A program made the translations under genes and the position numbers. Below are positions 11,990 through 62,847 of a DNA stretch of 64,000 bases, piece after piece. Under the pieces are notes generated by a model, which was not told the origin of the DNA, did not search any database, and worked only from the letters and a program-made list of their open reading frames with translations. Source of the stretch: Naegleria gruberi (lineage: Eukaryota). Each line of letters opens with the position of its first letter. Positions within the stretch are counted from its first letter, which is position 1. The stretch lies in NCBI GenBank assembly GCA_000004985.1, contig GG738845.1. The stretch is one strand, 5' to 3'.

Positions 11990-12187
11990 GTTACATACTA
12001 CACAATCCAATTTTGCGAGTAAAGGACTGTGTTTAAAATAATTGTTTTCTTCTTTTTTTCTGTTTTCTTCATTCACCCAGGTGTTATTAATTACCAAAGC
12101 CATGCTAAGAATAAATAAAATGTGAAACGGTTTTTCAAAAACACAACCGTTACATTTCAAATTTAAAAAAAAAGCAACAACAACAAT

Positions 12188-22315: not shown

Positions 22316-23553
22316 ATGGTTTTGAATCAAACTCATGAACATGGTGATTTAACTGACAAGAACAAGCTATTGAATCAGGAATCACCAACTAGTTATAATC
22401 CTTCTCCTAATAGTTATTATTCCAACCCTTCGGACCCATATTTACATCAGCAAGGGAGCTTGGAAAATGTAAGTTGAAAGAGTTGATTAATATCTTTCTC
22501 TGACTATTATAATAGGTTAAACAACACAATAGCAATGATGAGGAAAAGATATGTCGTTGTTGTCATGGAGTTTTAACAAGTAATGATGATTATATTTCTC
22601 CGTGCAAATGTACAGGTTCCATGAAGTTTGTTCATCGTTATTGTTTGGTATGTTTTTCAATTATCTCATATGTTAACTAGGCTTAGGATCAATGGAGAAC
22701 AGTGAGTCCAAAAGCAACATCTTTCTATCAGTGTGATATTTGCTCACATCCTTATGATATCAAAGATGTGGATGAGAATGGTAGGGTTTTAGATGAAACA
22801 GAAGTGAAAGAACAAGGTTGTGGTTATAAACCTAAATCAATACTCAAGTTTGGCACATTAGTAACTCTTGACTTTTCAATCATTCTAATTGTTTGGCAAG
22901 TATTGGTATTATTATGTGCTGGTTTCTTTGCTTTGTGTGATTATGATTATGGATTGAGAGCTAAATTGTTTGGTCTGGATATGAATATATATCTGGTTAC
23001 CTATATGTAAGTATATTAGAAATTTGAGGAAATGGATTAATAGTTCAATAATAGTTGTGGATTGGTAATGTTCTTCTTCATTATGGGCATGTTAGGATTG
23101 TGCTGTACTGGAATTGTTATCTTGAACAAGATGATGAATGACACCTTCTGTGGGAATTGTTTAACTAATGACCACTATTACTCTCATAATACATACCCAT
23201 ACTATGGCAGAAGGCACTCCAGACGTTCAGCTTTGTACCATTGGTACTGTTTTTGGCCATCCTTGTATGGTCGTCCAATATATGGTAGTTCTCCACATTG
23301 TTTCCCATTCGGTTGCTTTAATTGTGGAACTGGTTTTTCTGGAAATTGTGGAAAATGTGGTGATTGTAAAGGAGAAGGTGTATTGATTGTTCTTGTTATC
23401 ATTGTTCTTGCAGTGGCTATTGTAGGATTAGTGTTTGGTATGATTCTTATGGGATTGCTAGGCTATAGAATATTTTCTAGAAGAATTTCCGTTTTGAAAA
23501 AGAAAGACCAAGCTAAGTATCAACAAATTCAAAATTACTGGCCTCTTCCTTAA
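22316..23553 (+). CDS. MARCH-type RING-CH (C4HC3) membrane E3 ubiquitin ligase. Four exons with three short introns at about 22469..22515 (47 nt), 22648..22686 (39 nt) and 23007..23054 (48 nt).
   Basis: Exon 2 encodes ICRCCHGVLTSNDDYISPCKCTGSMKFVHRYCL, and exon 3 continues DQWRTV..YQCDICSHPY. Together this is the RING-CH signature (CxxC..PCxCxGS..VHxxCLxxW..CxxC). At least three hydrophobic helices follow in exons 3-4. All three introns are GTAAGT/GTATGT...(A)ATAG or CTTAG, and all splices preserve frame. Confidence 0.7.
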
Positions 23554-30500: not shown

Positions 30501-32594
30501 ACTCGTGACCCAAGCAATCCAAGTAATCCTGGAGGAGATGTTGTCTTGTCATGCACCAATCTTGACACTGCCACAACTTGTGATGGATTTTCAAATTCTG
30601 CAAGTAATATTAATCAAACTACTCGCAGTTTCAAACAAGGAATGCAACCAGGAACTTATATGTTCACAGCAACCTATACTAAGGGATCTAGAAAGTCTCA
30701 ATCTTCTGTAAAAGTCACACTTTTGGACAAACCAAAATCAACAATTATTAGAGTGTTAGTTTCCCCTCCTAGGAGTGCTGATTTGACAGCAGTTGATCCT
30801 TCTACTGAACTAGTTCTTCAAGCTACAACAATGGATACATTGAGTTCAGATAGAGTCTTTACTTGGAGCTCTCCTGATATTGACCTTACCTCAATTACCA
30901 CTTCCAACAAGTATATTGTAATTCCAAAGAGCTCTCTCGTTCCAGGAACTTCCAATACTGTTAAAGTTAAGATTGTAGATGGCACTAGATCTGGAGAGGC
31001 TGAAATTTCTTTCTCTGTTAACTCTCCTCCAACACAAGGTATTTTAGAAGTCACACCATCCACAGGTATTGCTTTATCTGATGAATTCCAAATTAAGTGT
31101 GGAAATGGTTGGTACGATGTTCAACTTCCTTTATCTTTCAAATTCATGTACAAGGAAGAAAATCAAACAAATTGGAAAACTCTATCAGAACAATCAGAGA
31201 AGAGATCCTTGGCAACATCCTTACCATTTGGTGTGTTGCAAATCAAAGCCATTGTTTACGACTCATTGGGAGCATCGACTGAAGCAATCACTACAGTAAC
31301 CACTATACTTCCAGATGCTGGAGCAGTCCTGAGCATTTTAACCTCACAACAAGGGACAGTCACTGTTTCAACACTTGCTTCTGCTCTCAGTGTTGTTGGA
31401 TCAGTTACGGGATTGACTACAGATCAAAAAGCAGCAATGCAAGAGGCCAGTAAGACTTTTGTTAACAAGTACTTTGAACAACAATCTCAAAAAGACAGTT
31501 TGCTTGAAGAATCATCTTCCTCTGCCTCATCTAAACTTTCAGTTATTTCTTCTATCAGTAATTTTGTAAAAAATCTCCCTGATGAGACTGTTTCAATGGT
31601 TATTCAAAAATTCTCTAAAACTATGGGTTCTGCTTCTACTAGTTCCTCAATTAGTATGGGTAGTGACGATATTTCCTCATCAACCAAGTCAGCAAACTCT
31701 CTCAGAGAACACGTTACTCAAAACATGGCTAAGAGATTTATTTCTTCCTTCACCAAGAATGATTTGAAGACGATTGACGATGTTTATGCCAGTCTTGTTA
31801 GCATTCAAGTTAAATCTTCTGTCGCTGATATGCCAGCCACTAGAGGAGAGGGTGTGGACTCAAACACTTATGCAAGACTTGTCAGTATTCCAACTTTGAA
31901 TGGATTGTCAGAATTGGTTAAGGATCAGGGTGTCTCTTCATTCAAACTTTCATCAACATTTGGTGATAATTCCAAGATTAAGAGTTTAGATAGTGTTAAA
32001 GTTTCAGCAAAGATTCGTCTATTAGATACTTCTTCTCTCAAAGCAGCCACCAAAGTGTTTGAATTGGGAATATCTGATAGTGGTAATAATATCATTGTAC
32101 AAAATAGCCAGTCTATTGCAACTTTGACCATCGAAAGAGTACCCAATGGAAGAAGATCTGTTATGGCTTCTGTACGAAAATGCTTCTCATTGCAAAATAA
32201 TGATTATGTACAAGATAGTACTTGTAGTATTTCTTCAGAAACCAATTCGAATATTGTCATTTCAGTCCAAAGCACTGGATCATATGTAGTTGTAGAACAA
32301 CCAGCTCCAACCAGTAGTTCAGTTCAGCCAACACCTTCTGTATCAGTTGTATCTCCAGCTCATTCAACTACAACTCCGCAAACCTCAACCACCACCACAA
32401 CTCCACAAACTTCTAAAGGCAGTACCAAGGTTCCAACAACAAGTGGACCAAATCTTGATTATATTGCTCTTATATTATTAATTATTCCAGTGGTACTTGT
32501 TGTAGTTGGTATTATTGGATTAACTGTTTGGTTAATGAAGAAGAAGAAGAACTCAAATAAGGATACTAACTTGGTTGAATTGAGAAGTGTTTAA
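24525..32594 (+). CDS. Giant (about 2630-2689 aa) type I membrane protein. It has dozens of EGF / laminin-type EGF repeats, a Ser/Thr-rich Ig/PKD-like region, a mucin-like stalk, one C-terminal TM helix and a short cytoplasmic tail. It is a probable adhesion or surface receptor.
   Basis: A single 8.07-kb intron-free ORF. A likely signal peptide starts at the internal ATG near 24707 (MRIRNYCFIVIALLLLCSGVILVRG). There are more than 30 CxCxxG(W/Y/F)xGxxC units, for example CKCDYGWEGAVC and CSCNQGFTGRNC. The C-terminus reads TTTPQTSTTTTTPQTS..LDYIALILLIIPVVLVVVGIIGLTVWLMKKKKNS. Confidence 0.8.
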   Translation: MKNVVSTANYKFRRYKMNFLLKNFQMRNDTTVFLQYSVVVCALRGCYPCESCKDSKQKNNNMRIRNYCFIVIALLLLCSGVILVRGLSCSKEEDCADSSGSCINGKCECWNNHKTGDYCDVCIRGYVGANCEDCAAGFTKDPQDGSTCLANCNPACYRGDCVGTNLCECNTGWDGATCNVCAKGYSGTDAFGNLLCDVKTCVPGCGYHGKCDVPPSTCKCDYGWEGAVCNIPQCYGNYACGNNSYCSSAFECSCVEGYNQTAAGCVPNVYNCPVPCGDHMKCNSSLLCACEQGYDSINGACYKTCPSNSVRSGTDCVCVAGYSLNNGVCEKECKDCTNGVCSNGVCTCNDGFEKKGEYCYKPCSVFTGTVGATCAIGGICKANGPFFSCSCSESGKEEFNGVCRTPCNPACGENTECNENSICQCKSTLDQDKYSFDNATRKCYPNCTKCKLEHQTCNNPDDANCFCDRVRGYLPIYDSNGVVISCEKPCNPACMGYSHCVNGDHCECDTGYTNYGNEYGCVKTCTSACIGLSWCSDAICYCPSGYQQHSNSTSIWCEPVCSTPCGANMECSAPDNCTCKAGYEVIGSECIKLCPSNSVRSGTDCVCVAGYSLNNGVCEKECSPECTNGVCSNGVCTCNDGFEKKGAYCYKPCSGFTGTVGAPCAAGGICKANGPFFSCSCSESGKEEFNGVCRTPCNPACGENAECNENSICQCKSNLDQAKYSFDNATRKCYPNCTKCKLEHQTCNNPDDANCFCDRVRGYLPIYDSNGVVISCEKPCNPACMGYSHCVNGDHCECDTGYTDYGNEYGCVKTCTSACIGLSWCSDAICYCPSGYQQHSNSTSIWCEPVCSTPCGINKQCSAPEECSCKIGFDDVKEVCVESCQVGYSRAEDDDKCYADCKVCGAHSSCYHSECVCDLGYQVDARGDCSSVVHDNSTGNTTAGNSSTSGGCDPICNPTTSSCLDGACICKDNLEMIGGECVHVCSLDCGIHGICQNTTGSATCNCTDFFEGMACSTCKSGFSLINDRCVCDDSSGRALVGENCICNSVASFKQVGTECVRSEPNCRYGCGNGLCRFVNNVTSDTECVCSAGFISTNQSNCNDCDSNQGLILSNGLCVCNVRLGFRLSTIDGKCKISTPICADKCGNGECQFVDSTTDLAECKCNVGYMTVRGSGKMCSECATGYSLSNGVCKLICPEEYSGDDCSTYTPTSACVNPPSNSLSFCKSVVSYQVKNTLYIQGAQSPSQAKEMFFTNMKSVDEAASNILSQVLNEFAKQNMSCDSNCIAVSTKSICYQYISSCSVDNSNVAVEKKLCKSVCNYILNNEVVTYPDVYANSCNRLPETNCFYGTYLPPATSCFGVPYLNSSVCSGKGRCVDTDSCSCNQGFTGRNCQLPFCFNIDSSDRLVCSSNGECVGVNKCNCKSGFTGKDCSIINCNGKSEAEGGCSFHGQCSAEHKCVCSGNFVGASCSECATGFTGVNCDIPICNGIKANDKTVCSSRGSCIVDGGEPKCSCSSGYSGTSCQNFKCNDIDRSSSDACSKHGKCIAQNTCVCAGNFDPLRYCSTCTPAFNGTDCTERICSDELTCSAHGKCNSNFKCDCQGNWVGDFCNQCKDGFVGTNCQFECSPSTKCSGRGSCNMDGTCQCTGNSIGKNCEQCATGWFGAKCDFSIDSTSFGFSSKGDSLYGTVYSNLKKKFACSDLVTTTDILGIGAVCVLNPEKSSMEIILGLSASVKIGSTLQFKKYFDSLETTQVTISTKDYVAVSPLANLISDKPSVSKACGKVYLDASSSVSIDRRTLLFSWSNILAPTTHDADTLNAFLSSVTSSGVYIGGADLSVGSYSVQVTVTSSFSLEKSTSTVSFDVSDLTSPTVAIKEGLESSIIIGKSSVITPTVTFPSCYKGEGPISYVYTLDTTKSINVDVKQKGELLIFNDDYTKITEEGDYYFILTTTQKGAADVKVPFKVTAKALPLVVSFSVRDMVQSFENDVTFTIITRDPSNPSNPGGDVVLSCTNLDTATTCDGFSNSASNINQTTRSFKQGMQPGTYMFTATYTKGSRKSQSSVKVTLLDKPKSTIIRVLVSPPRSADLTAVDPSTELVLQATTMDTLSSDRVFTWSSPDIDLTSITTSNKYIVIPKSSLVPGTSNTVKVKIVDGTRSGEAEISFSVNSPPTQGILEVTPSTGIALSDEFQIKCGNGWYDVQLPLSFKFMYKEENQTNWKTLSEQSEKRSLATSLPFGVLQIKAIVYDSLGASTEAITTVTTILPDAGAVLSILTSQQGTVTVSTLASALSVVGSVTGLTTDQKAAMQEASKTFVNKYFEQQSQKDSLLEESSSSASSKLSVISSISNFVKNLPDETVSMVIQKFSKTMGSASTSSSISMGSDDISSSTKSANSLREHVTQNMAKRFISSFTKNDLKTIDDVYASLVSIQVKSSVADMPATRGEGVDSNTYARLVSIPTLNGLSELVKDQGVSSFKLSSTFGDNSKIKSLDSVKVSAKIRLLDTSSLKAATKVFELGISDSGNNIIVQNSQSIATLTIERVPNGRRSVMASVRKCFSLQNNDYVQDSTCSISSETNSNIVISVQSTGSYVVVEQPAPTSSSVQPTPSVSVVSPAHSTTTPQTSTTTTTPQTSKGSTKVPTTSGPNLDYIALILLIIPVVLVVVGIIGLTVWLMKKKKNSNKDTNLVELRSV
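25437..27085 (+). repeat. Near-identical internal tandem duplication inside the EGF-repeat gene. Two units of about 782 nt (25437..26218 and 26304..27085) with an 867-nt period.
   Basis: tgtccttctaatagtgttagatctggaactgattgtgtttgtgttgcaggatattc recurs at 25437 and 26304. Identity stays above 95% through ..tggtgtgaacctgtttg(t/c)tc(a/c)actccatgtggt, apart from a 3-nt indel (KDCTNG versus SPECTNG). The encoded roughly 289-aa block (CPSNSVRSGTDCVCVAGYSLNNGVCEKEC...WCEPVCSTPCG) is repeated twice. Confidence 0.9.
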
Positions 32595-39317: not shown

Positions 39318-40961
39318 ATGAAAATTCAAAATTTTGCGATCATTGTGTTGACAACATTGTTGTTGTGTTGTTTTGTGTTTATTTGTTTCTTGATAAATGG
39401 ATATTCGAAATGTTTGAATCACCAGACAGGCATAATTAATCATGATGTGCACAAGTTGGCACTGATTGATTCCGATAGGGTGAGAGAAATTCCTCTCATC
39501 AACAAGAAGGTACCTCCTTCAGCTGTTATTCTCCCCAGAAATTTGCATCAACAGCTCCAACCAGTTCTTTCTATACCTCCCACAAAAATGACAAAGGAAC
39601 TCGAAATTGAACAAGAGGAAAAAACAATGGATGATTCGGAAAATATCATTGTTGCAAATCCAAATAAGTTTCCACCCAAACCATTACCAGACGAACCAAC
39701 ATTGCAAGGTAATCCCAACGAAACCAGTAATCCATTATGTGTAGATAAACGAAAGAGAGATTACAAACAGGTACCAATCAGAGTATCAGGACTTTTTAAT
39801 GGGGAATTTAGAGATTGTAGCATTAGGTGTGTTGGAGATGGCTATCCAAATCAACCAAGTTTACCTGATGTGTATGTGGGACGAGATGCTCCTCCTGATG
39901 GCTGTCCAAACTCTTTTTCCTTCATTTCTACAATGGAAAATCAACCAATGTTCAAGACCAATATCCACAGTTTAGTAGGTACGACTAATTTAAAAACTGA
40001 CGTTCCAGTTCAATATTTTAGTTGGGCTGAATATAGTTACATGAGCAAACCAAAACCAAAAACAGCAACTGCAATGATGGCGGTTTTCATTTCAAATTGT
40101 GGACCACCAAAACGATTGGAAATCATCAAGGAATTGGAGGAACACGGAGTTACAATCCATTCATATGGTAAATGTTTGCACAACACACAAATGCCAGATA
40201 CAAGAGATGGTGACTATTTGGGAATTAAAACTCGGATTACCTCCACTTACAAATTCGTATTTGCAGCTGAAAATTCAGAAACTGACGATTATGTCACTGA
40301 GAAACTTTTTGGAACATTTGATTCTGGAAGTGTTCCAGTTTATTTGGGAGCTCCAAATGTTAAAAAGTTTGCCCCAAGTGAAAAATCCGTCATTTCAGTT
40401 TCTGATTTTGCGACCATTAAGGAATTAGCAGAATATTTGAAAATGTTAGATAAGGATGATGTAAAATACAATGAATATTTGAAATGGAAGGAAGAAGGAC
40501 CATCACATGATTTTATTGCCATGATGGATATGGCTATTATACACTCTTCATGCAGATTGTGCATCAAAGTTGCAGATCACTACAGAAAGATTTACAACAA
40601 CCAGGTTGGAAATCAAATAATTCCAAAAGATAAACTTGGAAAGGACAGCATTATTGTGAGCGTTAGACCAAGAGGAGAATTCTACATGAAACAAGTTGAA
40701 CTATTACCAAATGAAATGAGTCTCAAACATCTCAAGAGAAAGATACAGAAATTGTATGCTGATAATCCTCTTCCTGTCGGATCTATTCACTCCATTTACA
40801 GATTATGGGACAATAACAAGATACCAATCAAGGATGAAGACTTTAGAAATGGTATTATTCACAATAGTATTGAGTTGGAGGTTATATTCCTTTATCCTTA
40901 TCATCCAGGAAGAGGAAAATTCAATGAGTGGCAACAAACTCACAAATTCTACCTTCATTAA
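39318..40961 (+). CDS. Alpha-1,3/4-fucosyltransferase (CAZy GT10), type II membrane protein. Paralog A of a tandem pair.
   Basis: An N-terminal signal-anchor (IIVLTTLLLCCFVFICFLINGY). The catalytic region has the GT10 motifs FVFAAENSETDDYVTEKLF (FxFENS...DYxTEK) and VPVYLGAP. A conserved extra C-terminal region of about 120 aa is shared with paralog B. Confidence 0.75.
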   Translation: MKIQNFAIIVLTTLLLCCFVFICFLINGYSKCLNHQTGIINHDVHKLALIDSDRVREIPLINKKVPPSAVILPRNLHQQLQPVLSIPPTKMTKELEIEQEEKTMDDSENIIVANPNKFPPKPLPDEPTLQGNPNETSNPLCVDKRKRDYKQVPIRVSGLFNGEFRDCSIRCVGDGYPNQPSLPDVYVGRDAPPDGCPNSFSFISTMENQPMFKTNIHSLVGTTNLKTDVPVQYFSWAEYSYMSKPKPKTATAMMAVFISNCGPPKRLEIIKELEEHGVTIHSYGKCLHNTQMPDTRDGDYLGIKTRITSTYKFVFAAENSETDDYVTEKLFGTFDSGSVPVYLGAPNVKKFAPSEKSVISVSDFATIKELAEYLKMLDKDDVKYNEYLKWKEEGPSHDFIAMMDMAIIHSSCRLCIKVADHYRKIYNNQVGNQIIPKDKLGKDSIIVSVRPRGEFYMKQVELLPNEMSLKHLKRKIQKLYADNPLPVGSIHSIYRLWDNNKIPIKDEDFRNGIIHNSIELEVIFLYPYHPGRGKFNEWQQTHKFYLH

Positions 40962-41088
40962 CTTGTGGTAAAGTTTGGAAAACCACACTTGATATAGATG
41001 TAGGTTCAGCTCAGTGTAATAATTTTAAAAAGTGCAACAACACCAAAAATTCATCCCTGCATTTTCCTCTAAAAATTATTCTGCTCCT

Positions 41089-42795
41089 ATGAAAACTCTA
41101 CAAATTATAACAATAGTACAGACGGCCCTGTTATTGTGCTGCTTTGTTGTTATAACCATCCTAATTAACAAATATTCTCTCCTTGTAAAGGAAATTAATA
41201 GTTCAAAATTACATCAATATTCTTCCCTAAATCTAAATTTGATTAAGCTTACATCACCACCCGAGACAACAATAACATCTTCCATTGTGATAAAACCACA
41301 AAAAACCTCATCACAACAACCTCCGATTAGAGAGCAATCGCCCATTGCACCATCGTCACCTGTACTCACACCTACAACAAAAGTTAATGATAAGGAGGAT
41401 CCAATAGACAAGACTCGAACCAAACTTACGACTTTGAACCTCAGTAGGAGGGAAAAACTATTGAGGGATAAGCAAAATGGATCAAACAAATCGGTCAGTC
41501 ACAACACTGAAGTGACATCCATTGAAAATCAAGACAAGCAGGTATATCAGATACCTCTTAACGGTGGAAGGGAATTAGCCAATTGCCCAGATAACGAGAA
41601 TAGAGATTATAACGAAAATCCAATTAAGGTCAGAGGTAAATTTACAGGCGAGTTGACCAATTGTCCAATAAGATGTGTTGGAGAGGCAAACCCACCAGAT
41701 GTGTTTTCTGGGAGAGATTCACCTAGTGGTGGTTGTCCACACGCATTTTCGTATCAATTTACCATGGAAAATATTAAATTGAGAAAGGCATCCACCCATA
41801 GTTTAATAGGTACAACTGATTTATCTTCAGATGTTCCAGTTCAATATTTTAGCTGGGCTGAATATAGTTATATGGACCCACCAAAGAATAAGACAGCAAC
41901 TGCAATGATGGCGGTTTTCATTTCAAATTGTGGACCACCAAAACGATTGAATATCATCAAGGAATTGGAGGAACATGGAGTTACAATCCATTCATATGGT
42001 AAATGTTTGCACAACACACAAATGCCAGATACAAGAGATGGTGACTATTTGGGCATCAAGACAAGATTAACTTCGACATACAAATTCGTATTTGCAGCTG
42101 AAAATTCAGAAACTGACGATTATGTCACTGAAAAATTGTTCGGAACATTTGACTCTGGAAGTGTTCCAGTTTATTTGGGAGCTCCAAATGTTAAAAAATT
42201 CTTACCACACGAGAAGTCAATTATTTCAGTTTCTGATTTTGCAACCATTAAGGAATTAGCAGAATATTTGAAAATGTTAGATAAGGATGATGAAAAATAC
42301 AATGAATATTTGAAATGGAAGGAAGAAGGACCATCACATGATTTTATTGCCATGATGGATCTGTCAATTTTGCACTCTTCATGCAGATTGTGCATAAAGG
42401 TGGCTGACTATCACAGAAAGATTTACAACAACCAAATCGGTCACCAGCTCATTCCTAAGGAAGACCTCAAAGAAGGTAGTATAGTGGTGAATGTTAGACC
42501 AAGAGGAGAATTCTACATGAGACAGATCGAATTATTACCAAATGAAATGAGTCTAAGACAGCTCAAAAAAAAGATACAAACACTCTATGCCAAAGAAGAA
42601 GCAACACTGGGATCTATTTACTCCATTTACAGATTATGGGATAAGAACAAGACACCAATTCAGGACAAGGATATGAGAAATGGTGTAATTTACAACAATG
42701 TAGATCTGGAAATCATCTTCCTCTATCCATATCACAAAGGTAGAGGAAAATTCAATGAGTGGCAACAAACTCACAACACCTTTAACCTACATTAA
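41089..42795 (+). CDS. Alpha-1,3/4-fucosyltransferase (CAZy GT10), paralog B. Its P/S/T-rich stem is longer than in A.
   Basis: The same motifs as paralog A. The nucleotide sequence of the catalytic core is nearly identical to paralog A, for example acagcaactgcaatgatggcggttttcatttcaaattgtggaccaccaaaacgattg in both. The track start at 41032 is a GTG, so I re-called the start to ATG 41089 (MKTLQIITIVQTALLLCCFVVITILINKY), which parallels the paralog A start. Confidence 0.75.
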   Translation: MKTLQIITIVQTALLLCCFVVITILINKYSLLVKEINSSKLHQYSSLNLNLIKLTSPPETTITSSIVIKPQKTSSQQPPIREQSPIAPSSPVLTPTTKVNDKEDPIDKTRTKLTTLNLSRREKLLRDKQNGSNKSVSHNTEVTSIENQDKQVYQIPLNGGRELANCPDNENRDYNENPIKVRGKFTGELTNCPIRCVGEANPPDVFSGRDSPSGGCPHAFSYQFTMENIKLRKASTHSLIGTTDLSSDVPVQYFSWAEYSYMDPPKNKTATAMMAVFISNCGPPKRLNIIKELEEHGVTIHSYGKCLHNTQMPDTRDGDYLGIKTRLTSTYKFVFAAENSETDDYVTEKLFGTFDSGSVPVYLGAPNVKKFLPHEKSIISVSDFATIKELAEYLKMLDKDDEKYNEYLKWKEEGPSHDFIAMMDLSILHSSCRLCIKVADYHRKIYNNQIGHQLIPKEDLKEGSIVVNVRPRGEFYMRQIELLPNEMSLRQLKKKIQTLYAKEEATLGSIYSIYRLWDKNKTPIQDKDMRNGVIYNNVDLEIIFLYPYHKGRGKFNEWQQTHNTFNLH

Positions 42796-43716: not shown

Positions 43717-46700
43717 TTAAATTCTGTTATTTCTCATGAGGGATTGGTAATTGAAAGAGGTTGGGGATGGAGATTCAGTATTATTGACATCAGAGTGTAA
43801 GGAAACCAAAGATAAATCCAATGGAAGAGCAGCTTTTGGATCTCTTTCCAAGTTTTGTGGAATTTTGTGGAAACCAAACTTTTTAGCCAAATCAGTTGGG
43901 TGTTGAGGAGGATTTAAGAAACCACACTTGCACAAGAAGCAATAGTAAGTGGTCATCAATTCAATAACCTTTGGACAAGTAACATTGGAATTTTCCAAAC
44001 CTTCCAAAGTGTGAGTGTTATCATACCATGGACGCTTGGCAGTCATCTTCAAGTCATAATCATCAGTGAAATAGGTTACCAATGGATACAATACATTTTC
44101 TTCAACAACCTTTCCAGTTTCAGTTTCAGCACTTTTATCTCTATTAACAGTAGCTTGATATAACTTTTCCTTCCATTCCTTGAATGGCAATGGCTTGATA
44201 CTGTAACCAAGCTTGTTACCACATTCGAATAATGAATTGAAGAAGAATTCGTGAGGATTGACCAAGTGATAAGCTTGATGTTTAACAACAGAGTCCATAG
44301 TTCTTGACAAGTGAACAATGGCACCAGAAATGAAATCAACAGGAGACATATCCAACTTGGAGAGTGGCATATCTGGATAGTAACCCATTTGGATACAACC
44401 CTTAATCATACGACACAAGAAGTCATCTGGATTCCAGACACCAGTCTTGGCGTGACCTGTAATATAACCTGGTCTGTAGATACAAACTGGTAAACCTCTC
44501 ATACGAGCATTCATGCACAACTTTTCAGCAACATACTTGGATTGTGGATAACCAGTCAAATCTTCGTGATATGGAAGTGTGGAATCTTCATAGACATCAG
44601 TGAATTCCTTATATTGTTCAGAGTCAAAAACAGATGTTGTGGAAACATAGTGAACTGGAGTCAACTTTTGACCAGCACAAGCCATCTTTAAAATTTCACG
44701 AGTACCATTAACGTTGGAGGCCTTCAACTTGTCATAACTGTAGAGCCAATGGACAGCGGCACCATTGTGAACAATGATATCAATAATGTTGGTCATTTCT
44801 TCAAACTTGTTTTCATTCAAACCCAACAATGGTTTAGTCAAATCTCCCAAAACTGGAATAATTCTCATTTCAACAACTTGAGCCAAGTTATTTCTGTTAA
44901 TAGAGTTGACAGAGTCCATTTCTTCTTCTTGATCCATTTCCTTAGAAGTCCACAAGAAGTGATATGACAAGAGGGATTCCAAAATACGTTTTCTGGCCTT
45001 TTCTTCATTTTCAGCTCTAACCAAACAGTAAATCTTGGCAGTTGACTTCTTCAAAAAGTCAGCCAACAAGAATGTACCCAAGAAACCAGTACATCCAGTA
45101 ATCAAAATGTTCTTTGGATTTTGCCAAACCTTGGAATAGGAAATGAAATCGTTAAAGTTCAATTGATGTTGAGGTCTGATAAATGCTTCCAAGTGAGTAT
45201 CCATAGAAACATCTTGAATCAAGTGTTGATTTTTGGTTTGACCACTTCTCAATTGTTCAATAGCAACAGCGAGAGCAGAGATGGTTGGAGCTCTGAACAA
45301 TAATTCAACTGGGAGTTTTTGAGCACCTTCAACTTGATTTCTGATCAACAAGGTCAATGTTGTAGCATTGATAGAGTGACCACCCAAATCAAAGAAGTTA
45401 TCATGGATACCAATGTTATCAGTGTTACCACGTGATAAAACATCAGCCCAAATTTGTTGTAATTGCTTTTCCAAATCATTTCTTGGAGCAACATATCCTT
45501 CTTCATCACCAGAATCCAAAGATGGCATGTGAATTGGATTTGGTAAATCTTGTTTTTTGATTTTACCGTTTGGAGTCAATGGAATCTTTTCCAATGGAAC
45601 AAAGTATGAAGGAATCATATAATCTGGTAATCTGGTTCTGATGTGTTGTCTCAAATCCTTAATGATGGTCTTGATTATACTAGATTCCATATAATTTCCA
45701 TTCTTGGCGTTGAGGGTAGAATTCTTTTCTAATTCAACCTTATCCAAAACAAAGTATGTAACAATACGCTTTTCATTTTGAATGCAATCTTCTCTGACAA
45801 TGGTAACACTTTCCTTAACAAATTCGTGAGAGTTCAGACAGGTGTTAATTTCACCCAATTCAATTCTGAAACCTCTAATCTTAATTTGGTCATCAGCTCT
45901 ACCACTGCATTCAGCATCACCACTAATTAAATATCTACCCAAGTCACCAGTTCTGTACATTCTATCCACATAACCACTGGTCATGAATGGATTTGGAATG
46001 AACTTTTCACGAGTATCCTTTTCCTTACCCTTATAACCTTGAGAAAGATGAGGAGATCTCATGTAAATTTCACCCATTTCACCAATACCTGACAACATGA
46101 ATTTGTTATCACGAGAAGTGAATCTGCTCAATGTCAATGCTTGAACATCTTGCATACCTCTACCGATTGGTAAAATATCCTTCAATTGTTCGAAAGGAAT
46201 ACCAGTTTCAATACACTTTTCACCTGGACGTGGGACCATATAGTAGGTAACAGAACGTTGAGTTTCAGTTGATCCATACAAGTTGATAACCTTAACGATT
46301 GGTGCAATGTCACACAATCTCTTAACGAATTTCTTAGACAAGACATCACCAACAAAGAATGCATATCTCAAATGATTCAATTGGAACAATTGAGATGATG
46401 TGTTAATGACAGATGCAGCAGTAGCCAACAATTGACCCATTGGTGGAGTCAAACAACAAACTGTAATCTTCTTTTCTTCGAACCATTCAGCAAGACGACC
46501 TGGATTGACAATATCTTCATTAGATGGAATATACATGGTACATCCCAAGAACCATGGAGTAAAAATGTCACGTTGCAAAGGATCGTGAGAAATACCAGAT
46601 TGCATTGAGAATCTGTCATTTTCACTAAAGCCAAAATATTGTTTCATCCATGGATAATAGTGAGTGAGAGGACCGTGTCTTCCCAAAACACCCTTTGGAA

Positions 46701-48126
46701 TACCAGTACTTCCTGATGTATAGGTGCAAACAGCAAAGTCATCTTGTGTAATTTTAACATTCAAAGTTGGATCTTCACTCAAATTGGAATCGTTATAATC
46801 AGAGTAGACATTCTCATTAAGAATATCAGTCATGGATTTCAATACTGTTACAAACTTGGTCTTTTCATTGATAAAATCAATGACAGACTTTGGTAATTGA
46901 CCAGCAGCTTCAATTAAAATAACTGCAGATGGTGTTGAAACTTCCAAACAAGTGATAATTCTGTCGGCTGGATAAGCAGGATCTAACATGTTAAAAATTG
47001 CACCACATTTCAATGTAGACAAGATGGCCAACACAACTGGACAAGATCTGTGACCAAAGATTGTCACAACCTCCTGTCTCTTCAATCCCTTATGAAGTAA
47101 GTGTCTTGATAACTGATTGGAAACTCGATTCAATTGTTCAAAGGTAACACTTTCATGATTATCAACCATGGTAATTCTATCTGGTGTTTGTTTAGCCTGT
47201 TCTTGGAAAATTTCATGAATTGGACCAATGAAATCGTTATTCAAAGCTTTATCAGGGTGTGGTAAAACCTTCTTGGCATATTCAGTCACCAAACTGATAT
47301 CATAAATAGAGACATTGCAATTACTCGACAATACTTGTTCAGAAACTAATTTCAATTGATTCAATAATTCAGCCATTCTCAATTCTGTGAACAAGTTATT
47401 TTGATAAATGATACTGAGTTCGTTAGATTGAGTATTGTAGTGTAAATTTAAATCAACATTAGAAATAGGGAATGGTTTGTCCACCTTAGTGAATGGACCG
47501 GCATAGGAACTATAAGAAACTTGAACGAGTAAATTTGTATCAATATTACCAGCATTAGCATTGTTAGACAAAAATTGTTCGAGAATATTCTTTACATTAT
47601 TGAAATATGATAAATGATTCAATGAATCATTGTATGATTGTTGAATATTGGAAAGTAACTTTTTAAAACTATACTTTTCAGTAGCATCACTTTGTGAAAT
47701 ACCTTCAAATGTATCTTCTTCATTGGAAGGCATTGGAATATTGGCTGACAAGATGAATGAATCCTTTTCTTCATTACAATCTTGCAATACACCAATTAAA
47801 AAGGTTTCTTCATATGTATATCTACATAATAATACAACAAATAAGGAGAGAATGAATGAATTCTTAGTAAATAATTGTTGTGCCTCTGAATCTCCATTCT
47901 TGATAAACAGTTCTCTAAATTTGCTACTATTCAACACTTGTTCCATTGAAATGGTATATTCTAATGGTTTATACTCAACTTGGGTAGTAGAGGTAGTAGA
48001 AGTTGATGAAGCTGCTTCATCATTTAACATAACTCTAGGATAATCAGTTGGCAATTTCAAACTTTGATTTTGACTCAACAATTGTGACCAAAACGACAAT
48101 TGTTTTTCCTTCAACAATGAGGCCAT
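43717..48126 (-). CDS. LYS2: L-2-aminoadipate reductase (Lys2-type, A-T-R architecture)
   Basis: Homology to S. cerevisiae Lys2 runs across the whole protein. [96 protein letters not shown] aligns with Lys2 [132 protein letters not shown] aligns with Lys2 [37 protein letters not shown]. The PCP motif is [11 protein letters not shown]. The reductase domain has [17 protein letters not shown] and [10 protein letters not shown] (YxxxK). The track N-terminus starts at a GTG; the first ATG is at 48126 (MASLLKEK...). Confidence 0.85.
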   Translation of the reverse strand: [1469 protein letters not shown]

Positions 48127-48670
48127 GATGCAATTAAAGTGATGATGATTTGAAAAATGTAAATTTACAATGATACTCGAAAGTAGTAACACACTAGTTA
48201 ACTAGTAGTAGGGGAAGGGGAATATGTGTGCAAGTAGCAGAGCAGCAGCAGCAACAGAGAGAACAATTGAATGAATAGAAACAACACAGTCTTGTTGTAG
48301 AGTTGTTTTTTTCGCTCTTTTTCGTGGTGCATCTCCACAGAGACCAAAAGTAAAACGCGAGAGGTGAATCCACATTTTAAATATCAAGCCATTTGAATTT
48401 ATTTGGCGATTTTTCCTCTAGGGATTTTGGGTCATTTCAATTAAAATTCAGCGAATATGTTTAAATTTTCCACTGTGTTGCACTACAATTTACAATGGTG
48501 ATGATGTGTTTGTTGAGGAGAAATTTATAGAAGTTTAAAAGTTGTTTTAAAATTATTGAAAATACATGTATTTCATAGTATTCAATGAATGAAGGCACAG
48601 AGGAAGGATGGGAGAAATGAGGAGTAACAACATTTATGTGACCTCAAATTTACAACACACTTCAAATAAC

Positions 48671-55300: not shown

Positions 55301-55459
55301 GTTTTACTTGTCTTACCACAGAATCTTCCAGAAGTTGTCTCTCAATTAGAAAAGAATCCATCCGTGAAACATGAAGATGTTATTGCATTCATCAGAATGA
55401 GAAGTGACTATAGCAAGAATAAGACCATGTTTAAAGAGAAAATCCCTGATTTCCACTAG
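52386..55459 (+). CDS. EXOC5: Exocyst complex component Sec10/EXOC5. Two exons with a 29-nt intron at about 53080..53108 (G|GTAATC...TAATTAG|). The N-terminal extension is S/T/K-rich.
   Basis: Exon 2 opens ..KQKSRAIEAKQLMKFFNEF, matching human EXOC5 TPRQRAVEAQKLMKYFNEF. The C-terminus FIRMRSDYSKNKTMFKEKIPDFH matches EXOC5 FVQLRADYRSARLARHFS. The exon 1 ORF (track 52386..53108) ends FHQELE, aligning with EXOC5 FQHFQELD. Only the phase-1 join across the 29-nt intron keeps the frame open. Confidence 0.75.
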
Positions 55460-55829: not shown

Positions 55830-58800
55830 ATGCAAACACTACCAAGAGATAACACTCCTGAAAGTGCAATGAATCACATTATGCAGGTTGGTAATGCATC
55901 ATCAAGATTACTTGGTTGTTCCACCTCAAAGAGGATCTCCTCCACACTAGCCGCATCACTCTGTATGATTGTTGCAGTGGTATGCTTTAGTTCAATCATG
56001 ATGATCTCATCTAGCTTTAGCTTTGTAGAGGGACAACAACAACCACAACTCAAAGTCTGTATCAATCAAACATCTACATGGAAGCAAGACATCTGTAGTA
56101 CCAATATTACAATGACCTATCCTAGTTATTGTCATTATCAAAATCCGTACATTGTTCCCTATCCTCTAGGTTACAAATTATTCAATGATTCCACTATTGA
56201 TTTGCAAACATGTTTAGATAAGAATGGAAATCCACAAGATGAATGGTCTGATGAATGCTACTTCCTCAATTCTTTAAATATCATAGAGTTGGAGGGTTTC
56301 TCCACAGGTAATCAATCCTCTCGTTACATTCTATTTGCTACTAATAGAGGCCAATTATTTGGATCCAATTTCAATGATGGAAACGTGTTGCTTCCTCTCA
56401 TGGGAGATAACAATCACTTTGAACCAATTACAAAGGTTGTGAGCGTTCCTTTCAAGGAAGGAAAGGGTGTTTACGTCATTGGTAAAGCAAAACAACACTC
56501 TATCATGTATTATTATTCGCAATTGGATGTAACTTTTCGTCCATGCACCAATTTTAATTTACTAACCAATGCAGATATTGTTTATAGTGAAATTTTATAT
56601 ATGGAAGATCAGGGAGAAATATTCTTACTTTTAATTGGTGAGGAAACAATCTTCTTTTCAAAACTTGGAGCATTGTGCAATATTGTAGAAAAGATTTATA
56701 CTTATCAATTCACTAGTGAAAAGATTGTTAATGTTCAAGTTCATACTCAATATTATAACATTTCTAAACCGACAGCATCCATCTATATTAAGGATGATCA
56801 TCCATACAGAAATTTAATTAGTATTCAAACTAGCAAGTCTCTCTATTTGATTCCTTTCGAGAGAGGTGATAAGGTTATAAGTGGTAATTCTGCTGGATAC
56901 AATCTAATTTATAGAGTTGGATCTTTGGATGAAAAAACTACCATAAGTGGATATACTTTATTCAAGGAGGAAATTATTAAGGCAACTGGTGGAGAATGTT
57001 CTTCATCGGCTCCAGAATATTATCAAGCTCTCTATATTGGAGTTGCTACTTTTAACTCTCAAACTGGATCTTCCAAGATGACTTTGAGAAATTTGAACAG
57101 TTGGGGTTATGAAAGAAGTGATAATACTGTATGTGACGTGACCATTGGTGAATATCCAATCGATGGAAAGTGTGTCAAAGCATTTGAACATGTGCAAACA
57201 CTTCCATACAAGGTCACTCATATCAAATCAACATTTGTTGATCTTCCAGTTGAAGTAAGGGATCAAATTATGGGAATTACAGCTCAATATGTTACCAATA
57301 CCCAAGCAGCTATTCAATCAGTTGGCCCCATGTGTGAACAAATGGCTGGTGTTTCAACTCTCCTAAATAAGGGATCTGATTACATGACCAATTACAAGGC
57401 TTGTTTAGCAACTTTCCAAGCAGTAATTGAAGGAGCTGGACAATGTTCAACCCTTCTGGATATTATTCCACCAGATACTGTGAGAGAAATGATGCTTTAC
57501 CACTGGGTTCACAACATTTTCATCACCATGGAAGATAATTCTCTCATTATTTTTGGTGCTCAAGCTCGTGCATGTCAATCATCTGTTGAAAGAAGTCTAG
57601 TTGTCCGTGAGTACAATCAATTCAAACTTGTTGGAAGACCTTTGGAGTTGGGTATTTCACCAAATGGTCAACACATCTTCCTTACCTTAACAAGAAAGAA
57701 GTGGGAAATTGACGCCTTAATTCGTTATCATGCCATTTGTGAAACTCTGAAAAAGGATGAGAAAAATATATTCTTTAGTTCATTTGCTGATACATGTAAG
57801 GAAAATCCACCAACTGAACCAAATATTGGTTTATTTGGTTTCTCACTTAGTTATTGTATGCCTGGTTTATACTGTCCTAATGTTAAGGAAACAGTCATTA
57901 CAAAACTAGATAATGGTTACTATACTGAAAGACCTAATTATGCCATGCTTTGTCCAAAAGGCAATTTTTGTAAGTTTCTTCTAATAGCTTTTGTTTTACT
58001 CTTTTGATGTTAATAGGTACAAACGGTGTCAAGATGCTTTGTCCACCAGGATTCTATTGTGATGAAGAGGGGTTGGAAGCTCCAAAACGTTGTACTGATA
58101 ATAATTACAATTGTTTCAAGAGTGGTTTACAACAAGAAAATAACGTGCCAGACAAGGGAACTTTAACATTGACTCCTTACTATCCAACCATTCCAATTTC
58201 AGATGGTTTATTCATTATGAGAAGGGATGCCATCCATTATTCAGTTGCAGAATGTAAGAAAGGTGAATACTGTCCATTAGCAAGAGAACTTCAATTTAAC
58301 TCAACTGAGGATTTTAACACTACCAGAAAGAGTTTGAATTGTCCTGATAATACTTTTTGTACAGATTCCCGCATCATTACTCCAACTATTTGTAAATGCA
58401 ATTTTAGTTATTGTAGTTATTGTGTTGATGGAGCAAGTCAGGAAATTGCCTGTCCAGCAGGTTTTTACTGCACCTCTCCAGCAACAAAGAAAGCATGTAC
58501 AAGTGGTCAATATTGCCCTGAAGGAAGTGTCATTCCTCAAGTGTGTCCTGCTGGATATTATTGTGCAAATCCTTCTTCTTTGTCAACTTGTCCTTCTGGA
58601 CATTATTGTCCAACAGGAAGCATTATTCCAAGAGCATGTAGTTTCCTTTCAATTTGTTCAACCAATCAAGAACATGAGGCTTTCAACATTTTGGGATTCC
58701 TCTTTGTTTTTATTTGTTCTTTAATTGTCATTGTAATCTTTTATGCTATCAGACTTGGAAGAAAGTTATGGAATAATTATATTGATAAGAAGAGATCAAT

Positions 58801-60885
58801 TATTCAAACACCAACTTCTCAAAGAGAATTGATGGAACCAGGTGACAAAAAGCCTGCAGGTGTTTCCATTGTCTTTGATAAGCTTTGTTATCATGTGAAT
58901 GGCAAATCAATCCTTAATGATGTGACAGGTGTAATTCCTCCATCTAGATTGACTGCAATCATGGGACCTAGTGGTTGTGGTAAGACAACATTACTTTCCA
59001 TTTTGGCAGGAAGAGTTTATGAAGGTTCAATCAATGGTACCATTAAGATTAATAATACTATTGATTCATTCGCAAATTTGAAAAAGATTACAGGATTTGT
59101 TCCACAAAATGATATCATGCATCCAAATTTAACAGTTAAGGAAACTATTCATTTTGCAGCCAAGACTAAATTGGACTTTAGATTGGCCGCTAAACAAGTA
59201 ACTTCAATTATTAGTAATGTTATTGAAACTCTTGGTCTTGGTCATATTAAACACTCAATTATTGGTGATGAAAAGCAGAGAGGTATTTCAGGAGGTCAAA
59301 AGAAACGTGTTAACATTGGTATTGAATTGGCAGCTGATCCAAAAGTTTTGTTTTTGGATGAACCTACTTCTGGTTTAGATTCAGTCTCAAGTAAGGAAGT
59401 TATGTTTGCCCTTAATAGAATTGCTACTGAACAAAATGTTACCGTTGCAGCAGTTATTCACCAGCCTAGAACTGAAATATTCGAAATGTTCCATAATGTA
59501 ATTTTATTGGAAACTGGTGGTAGATTAGTTTATAATGGACCAAGCGCAAATGCATTGCCATATTTTGAAAAGTTAGGTTACAAAGCAGATGCAAAAGTTA
59601 ATCCAGCTGATTTCATTCTCGATGTTACCTCTGGTCAAGTTCATAATGATAACAAATATATTGCCTCAAGTTTATCTCAAGTTTGGGAGAAACATAGTTC
59701 TACAAGTTATTTCAAAGTCAATCAGAAAGAACTCTTGGAATGTTCTGATTATGAAGAAATTAAGAGGGAAAATTCAAGAAGAACAACTCTTATCACAAGT
59801 CAATTATGGTTATGTTTGAGAAGAACTTTGATTCAATTCACAAGAAGTGTTTTTGATTTCTTATTGGGTGTCTCTTTGGTGTATATTGGTGGTCTTGCAT
59901 GTGGTATAATCTTTGTAGATGGTTTGCATTACAGAGGACCTCCACACGAAGAAATTATCAAATTATGTCCAGAACCATTAAGATTGAAATGTTCAATGCC
60001 CCTCGATGATCCAATCATTTCTATGGCACAAATCATTCCATTGGGTATGGCATTGTGTGGTGTGATGAGTTCTTTGAGTATTTTCGGTGATGAATTGGTT
60101 GTTTTCAAGAGAGAATATGCAAGTGGATTGTCAACCTTAATGTACTTTATTGCAAAGAATATTGTTCACATTCCTTATATTTTGATTTATCCAGCCATTT
60201 ATACGTCCATCTTTTATATTCTTGCCAATCCATTAGGATCTTTCTGGGAATAGTAAGTAGTACAATTAGTGATCTTGTAATTAATATTGAAAATGATAGT
60301 TATGGATATTTAATTTTAGTTTATAATGTTGCTGTTGGTTTTGGTTATTTGCTTTCCATTCTATTGCGACCATCTGTCAGTAAATTGGCAGGTGTAGTTG
60401 TTGTAATTATCATGACCATGTTAGCAGGCCTTAGACCAACAATTCCTCAAATGAATGACATGTTCTTCCCAATGAATATTCTCCACTGGATTTCCTTCTT
60501 GAGATATTCACAAGAAATTGTTTATCTAATTGAACTTGAAAAGTTTACTCAAATTTTCAATGTTCAAACAAGTTTAGACATTTTTGGATACCAGTTTGGA
60601 AATTGGTGGTCAGGTGTAGCATTGATTTGTTATGCAATTGCTTTGAGAATTCTCGCCTATTTGGCTTTATTATATGTTCCAGATACTGTTTTCATAAAGA
60701 GAGGATTCAGATGGCTCATTAATAGAAGAGTTATTATCAAGAATTGGATTGCTCAAAAGAAGGCAAACAGAAAACCAAAGGAATTTCTTGTTGACTCCTC
60801 ACCTTCAACACCTGTTAACCTAAGTAACGAGAATCTATTAGGAGGAGAAGAACAATCACCATATTATAGAGTTTCAGACATTTAA
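55830..60885 (+). CDS. ABCG-family half transporter (nucleotide-binding domain then transmembrane domain, abbreviated NBD-TMD below) fused to a large N-terminal extracellular region. The ectodomain is a roughly 700-aa unknown domain plus GCC2/GCC3-like CxxGxYC cysteine repeats, then one TM helix before the NBD. Three exons, about 1654 aa, with introns at about 57970..58016 (47 nt) and 60253..60299 (47 nt).
   Basis: Exon 1: ATG with aaaaaaaATG context, an N-terminal hydrophobic segment (LAASLCMIVAVVCFSSIMMISSSFSFVEG), then a long Cys-containing ectodomain. The donor TG|GTAAGT and acceptor TTAATAG| join in frame to exon 2 (..KGNFC|TNGVKMLCPPGFYCDEEG). Exon 2 has repeats CPPGFYC / CPAGFYC / CPEGSVIPQVCPAGYYC / CPSGHYCPTGS and the TM helix ILGFLFVFICSLIVIVIFYAI. 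Then come the ABC NBD motifs: Walker A GPSGCGKTTLLSILAGR, Q-loop, signature ISGGQKKRVNIGIEL, Walker B KVLFLDEPTSGLD, H-loop AVIHQPR. Exon 3 follows a GTAAGTAG..ATGATAG| intron and adds further TM helices (VGFGYLLSILLRP.., VVVVIIMTMLAGL.., WSGVALICYAIALRILAYLALLYV). Confidence 0.75.
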
Positions 60886-61010
60886 ATAAAATCAAAAGCA
60901 AATTTGCTGCAAAAACAAAAGTGCAATTCTAGTATTCCATGTAAATTTTAAAAAAAACGAAAAACGTTAAAGTTTGCCTATTATCATCAGACTAGTAATA
61001 TTTATTAACA

Positions 61011-61877
61011 ATGGCATCTAATGGCGTAATTTTTACAGAATTAAACACTTGTATGAAGTGGAATGATAAATATATTCCTGAAAATCAATTAATTTACGTT
61101 CGGGATGGAACTACAAGTTGTGATGGAGGCTTTCTTGTTCATCACTTTTTGAATTCTTTTATTAATCATGGAAAGAAAGTAACGCTGTGTTCTTTTAATC
61201 AATCCTTCTTTCACTACAATACAGTTGAATTAAAATTAAATATTAATTTGGAAAAGGAATCACAGGAAGGAAAATTTACATTTATTGATGCTCAACAATC
61301 TTTTGTAGATTCATCGGTGGAGACTGGAGATGACTTACTTTTATTTTCATCACCATTGTTAATTACAAAGACTACACCTGCCACAAGACCAACTTGTATT
61401 GTCAATTTAAAGCATAATAATAGTTTGGATGAATATTTGGCTAATTTATTTGAAATTTTAACTTGTGAGAAACAACAATCATCATGCATCATTTTGGATC
61501 ATGTTAATCCTCTATTACAATATTATTTTGATCAAGATGTCAATAGGAAATTGTTGAAATTTATTACCAAATTGAAGAAATTCTATTCGAATAATATTTC
61601 AATTATTGTCTTGATGCATAATCATCCAGCAGATGATGAAAATACTCAATTGACTAACATGTTTGAACACATGAGTGATATTGTTTATAGAGTGGGTCCA
61701 CTTCCAACAGGCTATTCAAAGGATGTTCACGGAAAAGTTGAATGCATTTCATATATTAATGACGGTACATTGGCAAGCTCAAAGAAAGCTTCTCTTCATT
61801 TCAAAACATTTGAATCAAAGGTTTCATTGTTTGCACCAGGTTCTGTTTCGGCTTCTCACGACACTTTCTTATTTTAA
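61011..61877 (+). CDS. ELP6: Elongator complex subunit ELP6 homolog
   Basis: GTTSCDGGFLVHHFLNSFINHGKKVTLCSFNQSFFHYNTVELKLNINLEKESQEGKFTFIDAQQSF aligns with human ELP6 (AKTDGSFLVHHFLSFYLKANCKVCFVALIQSFSHYSIVGQKLGVSLTMARERGQLVFLEGLKS). GYSKDVHGKVECISY aligns with GFCRDVHGQLRILWR. Confidence 0.65.
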   Translation: MASNGVIFTELNTCMKWNDKYIPENQLIYVRDGTTSCDGGFLVHHFLNSFINHGKKVTLCSFNQSFFHYNTVELKLNINLEKESQEGKFTFIDAQQSFVDSSVETGDDLLLFSSPLLITKTTPATRPTCIVNLKHNNSLDEYLANLFEILTCEKQQSSCIILDHVNPLLQYYFDQDVNRKLLKFITKLKKFYSNNISIIVLMHNHPADDENTQLTNMFEHMSDIVYRVGPLPTGYSKDVHGKVECISYINDGTLASSKKASLHFKTFESKVSLFAPGSVSASHDTFLF

Positions 61878-61965
61878 CTAAACATTATCTTTATTTTTCT
61901 GTTATTATTCCTTTCATTGAATTTAATTAGCGAAAAATTAACACAAATTACAAAGAAATCATGAT

Positions 61966-62847
61966 TTATCTTCTCTTCCCAAGAGTTGCTAAAGGTGTAT
62001 TCTTATACTCAACTGGTTGCCTTAATCCAGACTTTAAATGATCTTGGGTTAGAGAATGGGTAAAATCACCCCACATTTTGTTGTTCTTTGGTTGAGTTTC
62101 TTGTGGAACTGGGCTTGCAGCTTTGAGAGCGTCTGACCAACCTCCTGATTGTGTCATTGTACGAACTGCTGATTGCTTATCTGGAATGATAGCCTTAGAT
62201 GTTGTGAACATTTCTGAAGGAATGTGTGTACTGGTGGTAGAAGTTTCCGAAAGTTTTTGCTTTTCTGCAATCTCAGCAGCATAGGTTGTCTTGAAAGTGC
62301 TCATTAAATTCTTTTCATTTTCCTTCTCAATCATCCACTGTTGTTTCTTTTGTTCCACGAGACGAGATGGAGCATGATTTTCTTGGAGTCCTGGTTTGAT
62401 TGTTCTAATGGCCTGAATTGCTGAATCAGTTTTTAATGCTTGTTGTGGAGGTGCATAGGTGAGATTTGTCATGGAAACGTGACTTTGTTCATATCTATCA
62501 TCACCATGAACAAAGAGTATTTCCTTCTCAGTCTCTTTAGGAAGAATTGGTTCTTCTACTCTGTAGGCATCCTTCTTGAGATTTGTTGGGTGTTGGTACA
62601 TTATTTGATTAAGTGTGGCTGGAGTTTTTAAGAGATTTTCATAACCAGTATCATTTCTCAATTTATCTTGATAGTCGGAAGCATTTCTTTCTTCAATCCA
62701 ATTTTCAATTAATGTTCCATTATTGTAGAGGTTTTTATGACTGCTTAAACCAATTTGTTCCGATCTTAAGACTCTTTCCTTAGGTGGAAGATATTCTGTA
62801 ACAGACTTTAAAGTACCAGTTTGTTGATGTTGTCTTGTTTGTTCCAT
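61966..62847 (-). CDS. Hypothetical protein of 293 aa with repeated T-x-TY / TTY-type motifs. It may be a cilium/axoneme-associated protein, but that is a weak call.
   Basis: A complete ORF (MEQTRQHQQTGTLKSVTEYLPPKE...) containing MTNLTYAPP and FKTTYAAEIAEKQ motifs. These are reminiscent of the TTYxxxF repeats of axonemal microtubule-associated proteins. No firm homology. Confidence 0.4.
   Translation of the reverse strand: MEQTRQHQQTGTLKSVTEYLPPKERVLRSEQIGLSSHKNLYNNGTLIENWIEERNASDYQDKLRNDTGYENLLKTPATLNQIMYQHPTNLKKDAYRVEEPILPKETEKEILFVHGDDRYEQSHVSMTNLTYAPPQQALKTDSAIQAIRTIKPGLQENHAPSRLVEQKKQQWMIEKENEKNLMSTFKTTYAAEIAEKQKLSETSTTSTHIPSEMFTTSKAIIPDKQSAVRTMTQSGGWSDALKAASPVPQETQPKNNKMWGDFTHSLTQDHLKSGLRQPVEYKNTPLATLGKRR

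Follow-up and report, generated by a model that had tools for sequence, protein, structure and literature searches.

The 64,000-nucleotide (nt) stretch of Naegleria gruberi contig GG738845.1 analysed here (the window; all coordinates below are positions in it) carries, at 55830-60885 on the plus strand, a gene predicted to encode an ABCG half-transporter with a large N-terminal exoplasmic domain. The gene is flanked by a Sec10 exocyst gene (ending at 55459) and an ELP6 gene (starting at 61011). Three open reading frames (ORFs) are found on the plus strand in this interval, at 55830..58007, 58004..60253 and 60349..60885. The original prediction for this locus had joined these ORFs through two 47-nt GTAAGT..ATAG introns into a single protein composed of an ectodomain, one transmembrane (TM) helix, a nucleotide-binding domain (NBD) and a transmembrane domain (TMD). 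Our analysis supports this join and leads to the following arrangement of the gene and of its product, in which the extra TM helix ahead of the NBD is called TM0 and residues are numbered as amino acids (aa).

55830..57969 (+), exon 1: aa 1-713 plus base 1 of codon 714; open reading frame, with the donor GTAAGT at 57970
57970..58016 (+), intron 1: 47 nt, GTAAGT...TTAATAG, phase 1, splitting the C714 codon
58017..60252 (+), exon 2: remainder of codon 714 through the first two bases of codon 1459
60253..60299 (+), intron 2: 47 nt, GTAAGT...ATGATAG, phase 2, splitting codon Y1459
60300..60885 (+), exon 3: through aa 1653, with the stop at 60883-60885; includes the basic C-terminal tail
55932..56027 (+), N-terminal hydrophobic segment (aa 35-66, from hydropathy): signal peptide or signal anchor
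56028..57794 (+), predicted exoplasmic beta-propeller domain: aa 67-655, ~590 aa, with a helical insert at about aa 474-557
57795..58681 (+), Cys-rich stalk: aa 656-935, ~280 aa, with 27 Cys and eight CxxGxxC units; interrupted by intron 1
58682..58756 (+), extra transmembrane helix TM0: aa ~936-960, then the basic stretch RLGRKLW..DKKR
58844..59656 (+), ABCG NBD: aa ~990-1260, PF00005 E 2e-26, NPADF motif present
58964-58987, 59285-59299 and 59345-59362 (+), NBD motifs: Walker A, signature and Walker B, respectively
59801..60693 (+), ABCG-type TMD: aa 1309-1590, six hydrophobic helices; interrupted by intron 2
60694-60882 (+), basic C-terminal tail, predicted to be cytosolic: part of exon 3

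Excision of 57970-58016 and 60253-60299 yielded a 4962-nt in-frame coding sequence (CDS) of 1653 codons plus a stop, with no internal stop codon; the protein is 1653 aa long and not 1654 aa as first claimed. Each intron is exactly 47 nt and runs from GTAAGT to ATAG. The homologue alignment continued without a gap over both splice sites: at junction 1, CPKGNFC followed by TNGVKMLCPPGFYC paired with the Naegleria sequence CPKGSFCTLGSKHECPYGFIC, and at junction 2, LGSFWE followed by YYGYLILVYNVAVGFGYLLS paired with KGYFYEYYFVILHLYFAAYGFGYLLS of P0001. Homologues of 1486-1726 aa cross both junctions in this gap-free manner, as do the transcript-derived Rigifila P0178 and Trinity P0008, and uninterrupted single ORFs of 1486-2012 aa on metagenome contigs are also among the junction-spanning homologues. 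The use of alternative acceptors (giving introns of 110/182 nt or 128 nt) would remove residues that align to conserved homologue positions. A scan of the window for GTAAGT...AG introns joining long open frames recovered both introns of the ABCG gene and two more short introns of similar style, one of 76 nt at 3764 and one of 48 nt at 23007, so that introns of this kind are not confined to the ABCG gene. An independent metagenome contig (locus L002, ena:ERZ929261, run ERR1078381, PRJEB11402; also L003) was 99.5% identical over 58591-62719, which suggests that a near-identical strain was present in an environmental sample. On this contig intron 2 was identical, and the covered part of the ABCG CDS differed by 9 substitutions (6 synonymous, 3 non-synonymous) and 0 indels. 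Collectively, these comparisons uphold the gene model, in which three exons make up one nuclear gene of a heterolobosean-like protist.

The C-terminal 700 aa of the predicted protein correspond to an ABCG half-transporter with intact catalytic motifs, in agreement with the original assignment. Hydropathy revealed two hydrophobic segments ahead of the NBD (aa 35-66 and 933-964) and a further six within the last third of the protein. Pfam put the NBD before the TMD (PF00005 at aa 1013-1165, then PF01061/PF19055 at aa 1309-1583); the best match of the TMD was ABC2_membrane_7 (PF19055, E 1e-35), and the ABC2_membrane profile that had been suggested as a check was also matched (PF01061, E 2e-16). 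The ATPase motifs are all intact, comprising Walker A GPSGCGKT (1030), Q-loop VPQ (1075), signature ISGGQ (1137), Walker B VLFLDE (1157) and H-loop IHQP (1194). Sequence searches of the PDB matched the ABC part to Pdr5, Cdr1, AtABCG25, ABCG2, ABCG1 and ABCG5/G8 with E values from 1e-40 to 1e-68. AlphaFold2 (AF2) monomer models were built separately for the exon-1 and exon-2 translations, with the model break at aa 714, and the exon-2 model (pLDDT 88.6) was superposed by Foldseek on ABCG2/ABCG25 at E 1e-31 and ~30% identity. TM0 was modelled by AF2 as part of a long helix at aa 938-976 and aligned with the TM of homologues. The canonical half-transporters with structures (ABCG2, ABCG1, ABCG5/G8, AtABCG25 and AtABCG16) have the same NBD-TMD order, fold and motifs at ~30% identity; in contrast to the N. 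gruberi protein, they begin at the cytosolic NBD and have neither TM0 nor an N-terminal exoplasmic domain. Throughout the subfamily, the motif Y.G..P.......P......C..P..D, which includes two cysteines, is found in the first extracellular loop of the TMD, between TM1 and TM2 (59950-60050, aa ~1352-1382), and this loop is a candidate contact site for the ectodomain.

A search with the ABC part returned PF19055 proteins from across eukaryotes, the top matches being from Heterolobosea (Acrasis kona and Willaertia magna). Source names among the matches listed include 'putative ATP-dependent permease ADP1', 'white-brown complex homolog protein 30' and 'ABC transporter G family member 24/28'. Nearly all of the top ABC-part homologues have a signal peptide, a Cys-rich region, one hydrophobic helix, an NBD and a TMD. 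BLASTP with aa 1-935 revealed that most of the 120 ABC-part matches share the last 70-140 Cys-rich residues before TM0 (E 1e-8 to 1e-17), and the stretch at aa ~850-930 is homologous in most of these 120 subfamily matches. These matches place the protein in the ADP1 / ABCG24-28 / 'WBC30' subfamily (Pfam PF19055). Since a Cys-rich domain and a TM before the NBD define this subfamily, the architecture is not new in kind. The premise that an exoplasmic domain N-terminal to an ABCG NBD was without precedent therefore has to be given up, and the apparent 'novel fusion' is a known architecture.

Yeast Adp1 has been described as an atypical ABCG protein with a Cys-rich N-terminal exoplasmic domain and an extra TM ahead of the NBD (PMC2848647; PMC9426558), and its function is still without assignment (PMC2848647). 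As in the N. gruberi protein, members of the fungal 'Adp1 group' (group VII of Kovalchuk & Driessen 2010; clade V in PMC9426558) have a single NBD that follows an N-terminal membrane segment and precedes the C-terminal TMD; ahead of this NBD they carry a large soluble domain rich in Cys, and they match PF19055. Gigaspora P0093, named ADP1 by its source, gave E 1.5e-96 against the ABC part and E 1e-10 against the Cys-rich stretch next to the membrane. The fungal Adp1 N-terminal domain is a few hundred residues long and has been described as made up of EGF repeats, whereas the N. gruberi protein gave no EGF or GCC2_GCC3 match in the profile searches reported below and has a predicted beta-propeller of ~590 aa preceding its Cys-rich part. 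Plant ABCG24/27/28 (such as Arabidopsis ABCG28) and animal WBC30 (Nematostella, Stylophora) also match PF19055 and show the same order of signal peptide, Cys-rich region, TM and NBD-TMD, but these proteins are 850-1100 aa long with no detectable propeller, and their BLAST matches were confined to aa ~790-935 and the ABC part. Polyamine-containing secretory vesicles at the tip of the pollen tube depend on Arabidopsis ABCG28 (reviewed in PMC7419745).

The whole ectodomain measures ~870 aa (67-935), close to the ~900 aa that had been proposed, but only ~590 aa of it lack Cys repeats, compared to the ~700 aa of novel domain in that proposal. These ~590 residues (aa 67-655) matched no Pfam family and had no PDB sequence relative; searches of the PDB with the propeller and with the stalk gave chance-level matches only, and no sequence match of the propeller to WD40 or another named beta-propeller repeat family was found. 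The best-conserved stretch of the ectodomain is at about aa 550-713 (...SPNGQHxF...R.kWE..s..Ry.eIC..L...). The region N-terminal of it aligns with the closest members only, and the others have 350-950 unalignable residues there. At the start of the protein, the internal Met46 would yield a classical signal peptide ending between VEG and QQQ, and classical signal peptides were found at the start of the homologues P0223, P0146, P0185 and P0122.

The exon-1 ectodomain (aa 67-713, comprising the propeller and the first part of the Cys-rich region) was used as the query in an exhaustive HMMER scan (E<=1e-3) against 1.84 billion cluster representatives, which retrieved 96 relatives. BLASTP with the full protein revealed that 29 of the 96 run on into the ABCG NBD and that 17 of the 29 continue through the whole TMD; the remainder are fragments. 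A word-indexed protein search with the ectodomain, either as a single sequence or as a 10-sequence alignment, returned no match even though relatives are present in the same collection (P0121, E 1e-74), and a negative result from such a search is unreliable for this kind of eukaryotic protein. The 29 relatives that join ectodomain and NBD include Naegleria and Willaertia and are homologous fusions comparable to those that the original prediction had proposed to look for in related genomes. The long-form members identified by name are Naegleria fowleri KAF0982141/CAG4708565 (P0217/P0218; 1549 and 1726 aa), N. lovaniensis KAG2392771 (P0187), Willaertia magna KAL9658626 (P0125), Anaeramoeba flamelloides KAJ3446436 (P0132; annotated 'abc transporter g family member 28'), and transcripts of Rigifila ramosa and Mastigella eilhardi. 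They show the full architecture found here, from the propeller module through the stalk and TM0 to the NBD-TMD. Over 1521 aligned positions P0218 shows 42% identity and, as none of the long-form homologues exceeds 42%, the gene analysed here represents a distinct species and is possibly a paralogue.

The propeller clade delineated from these sequences is common to Heterolobosea, Anaeramoeba, Rigifila, Mastigella and many environmental eukaryotes. In the best explanation, the propeller is an N-terminal addition to an older Cys-rich-TM0-NBD-TMD layout. No description of a propeller-bearing clade was found in the literature searched, and its members are databased under generic names. The more unusual part is the beta-propeller extension, which defines a conserved protist clade; the ADP1-type ABCG kind itself is known.

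The Cys-rich stalk, which is of the disulfide type, contains 9.6% Cys compared to 0.9% in the NBD, was modelled by AF2 as beta-hairpins, and is homologous in its membrane-proximal part to ADP1/WBC30/ABCG24-28-like proteins. Its CxxGxxC units start at aa 676, 708, 722, 793, 859, 874, 890 and 905. Although these repeats had been labelled GCC2/GCC3-like, the Pfam family GCC2_GCC3 (PF07699) was matched neither by the full protein at E<=1 nor by the Cys-rich region alone at E<=10, and it was absent from the precomputed domains of the 120 ABC-part homologues. Likewise, none of the EGF-family hidden Markov models gave a match at E<=10 for aa 652-935. These results suggest that the GCC2/GCC3 resemblance is one of pattern only.

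Intron 1 interrupts the C714 codon, which specifies the last Cys of the second CxxGxxC unit (CPKGNFC), and is located ~40 to 60 residues into the Cys-rich region, rather than exactly at the boundary between ectodomain and Cys repeats as had been stated. At a Naegleria-type locus (L001; logan:SRR29240419 contig 2209, 10001-16194) the ectodomain, including the intron-1 position, is encoded by one 1072-aa ORF. The homologue at L001 is split into five called ORFs whose breaks fall elsewhere than the introns here and further downstream, and the neighbouring genes differ (adh_short and actin at L001), so that synteny gave no support for orthology. These differences indicate that neither the intron positions nor the synteny are conserved. 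Because intron 1 lies inside a Cys repeat and the L001 ectodomain is uninterrupted at that point, the exon-shuffling origin that had been suggested for the gene is unsupported.

Eight cysteines in the exon-1 ectodomain are invariant among 10 homologues, and a basic cluster directly follows TM0, which is a positive-inside pattern. We take Asn-165 of yeast ADP1 to lie within its N-terminal domain. This residue is an experimentally occupied N-glycosite (PMC3433913). From the N-terminal hydrophobic segment, the signal peptides of homologues, the cysteines, the basic residues and the ADP1 glycosite, we infer that the propeller and stalk are exoplasmic, either extracellular or lumenal. The order is consistent with a topology of (signal or anchor)-out-TM0-in(NBD)-6 TM-in, and the 1+6 TM arrangement with a cytosolic NBD that had been predicted agrees with the hydropathy, the homologue signal peptides, the Cys pattern and the basic cluster after TM0.

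We consider it very probable that the gene encodes, after splicing, an ADP1-type ABCG half-transporter with an exoplasmic propeller and stalk that operates as a dimeric exporter. All ABCG half-transporters dimerise. Through TM0 the chain would re-enter the cytosol, where the NBD lies; two protomers would dimerise and, as is established for ABCG proteins, ATP would be hydrolysed at two equivalent sites. The substrate exported by the dimer may be a small amphipathic, lipid-like or polyamine-like molecule, which would be delivered to a lumen or to the exoplasmic leaflet. The paired ectodomains would be positioned above the exit of the translocation pathway and, judged by analogy, would most likely serve as a partner- or acceptor-binding module, or as a module for positioning and stability, rather than as a signalling receptor.

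A different gene model would divide the interval into two separate genes that are not spliced together, one for a secreted propeller/Cys-rich protein (55830-58007) and, downstream of it, one for an ABCG transporter. In favour of this model, unspliced read-through of ORF 1 would stop just 12 codons past the donor site, and the transcripts that span the junctions belong to other organisms only. However, without splicing the second ORF would begin in the middle of the Cys-rich exoplasmic region with no signal peptide, homologues carry both parts in one ORF or transcript that is gap-free over the junction, and intron 1 has a canonical donor and acceptor, the same length as intron 2 and a resemblance to the other short introns of the window. 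The existence of two genes is thus extremely improbable. Several points nevertheless speak against the single spliced exporter as we describe it. The transcript support for splicing comes from homologues and not from this organism, and 34 residues precede the signal segment, so that a cleaved peptide and an anchor are both possible. The blade number and the placement of the ectodomain with respect to the TMD are taken from the separate-exon monomer AF2 models and not from a full-length dimer. The subfamily's only functional datum, that for ABCG28, comes from a plant member without a propeller, and the binding or positioning role given to the ectodomain is drawn from analogy.

The role of the ectodomain could be read in other ways. 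The propeller may bind an external ligand or surface and thereby gate or activate ATP-driven transport, or the protein may signal, which we regard as quite unlikely for this receptor-coupled form of the transporter. That the conserved propeller-plus-stalk ectodomain is a true extracellular sensor of a ligand or partner that allosterically gates the ABCG exporter via TM0 is, on our estimate, very unlikely. If true, the clade would represent an ABC transporter coupled to a receptor, for which there is no documented case among ABCG proteins, and the coupling would be ancient because the clade is common to Heterolobosea, Metamonada, CRuMs and Amoebozoa. The ectodomain may instead act mainly in sorting (for example, targeting to secretory or contractile-vacuole membranes), in folding or in adhesion to the organism's own surface coat or to prey, with the transporter part working independently as an ordinary ABCG exporter. 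Arabidopsis ABCG28 acts on secretory vesicles and the N-terminal region varies between members, with 350-950 aa before the conserved module, both of which would fit such a role. The membrane-proximal module and stalk are, however, conserved across distant eukaryotic supergroups, which favours a function linked to the transporter as such, and we judge the sorting or adhesion role unlikely. The binding or positioning module of a dimeric exporter is accordingly the role that we prefer.

The ADP1/ABCG24-28 subfamily is ancient and widespread and functionally almost blank, and yeast Adp1 has been without an assigned function for decades. The long-form protist members suggest that the exoplasmic part of such transporters can grow to include a large beta-propeller. 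Conservation within the ectodomain is highest in the last propeller blade, its linker and the membrane-adjacent stalk, and this conservation makes the interface between ectodomain and transporter the place to seek the function of the subfamily. Naegleria is a tractable host.

The window as a whole is dense eukaryotic nuclear DNA of ~33% GC, and its genes include Sec10, ELP6, a CCT subunit, actin, a Misato-like gene and a Lys2-like reductase. The 76-nt candidate intron (3764-3839, +) joins the Misato-like ORFs 2696-3814 and 3849-4679, and the 48-nt candidate intron occupies 23007-23054 (+). A possible intron of 189 nt (11986-12174, +) joins 10700-11989 to 12188-14722. The following coding regions were also observed in the window.

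24525-32594 (+), a single ORF of 2689 aa in which a REJ domain (E 4e-35) is combined with EGF repeats of the teneurin type, resembling a polycystin-1/REJ-like giant surface protein, here in a protist
39318-40961 and 41032-42795 (+), tandem paralogous GT10 fucosyltransferase genes, both matching PF00852 at E ~1e-38
43717-48192 (-), a 1491-aa protein with AMP-binding, PP-binding and NAD_binding_4 domains, the Lys2 / carboxylic-acid-reductase architecture

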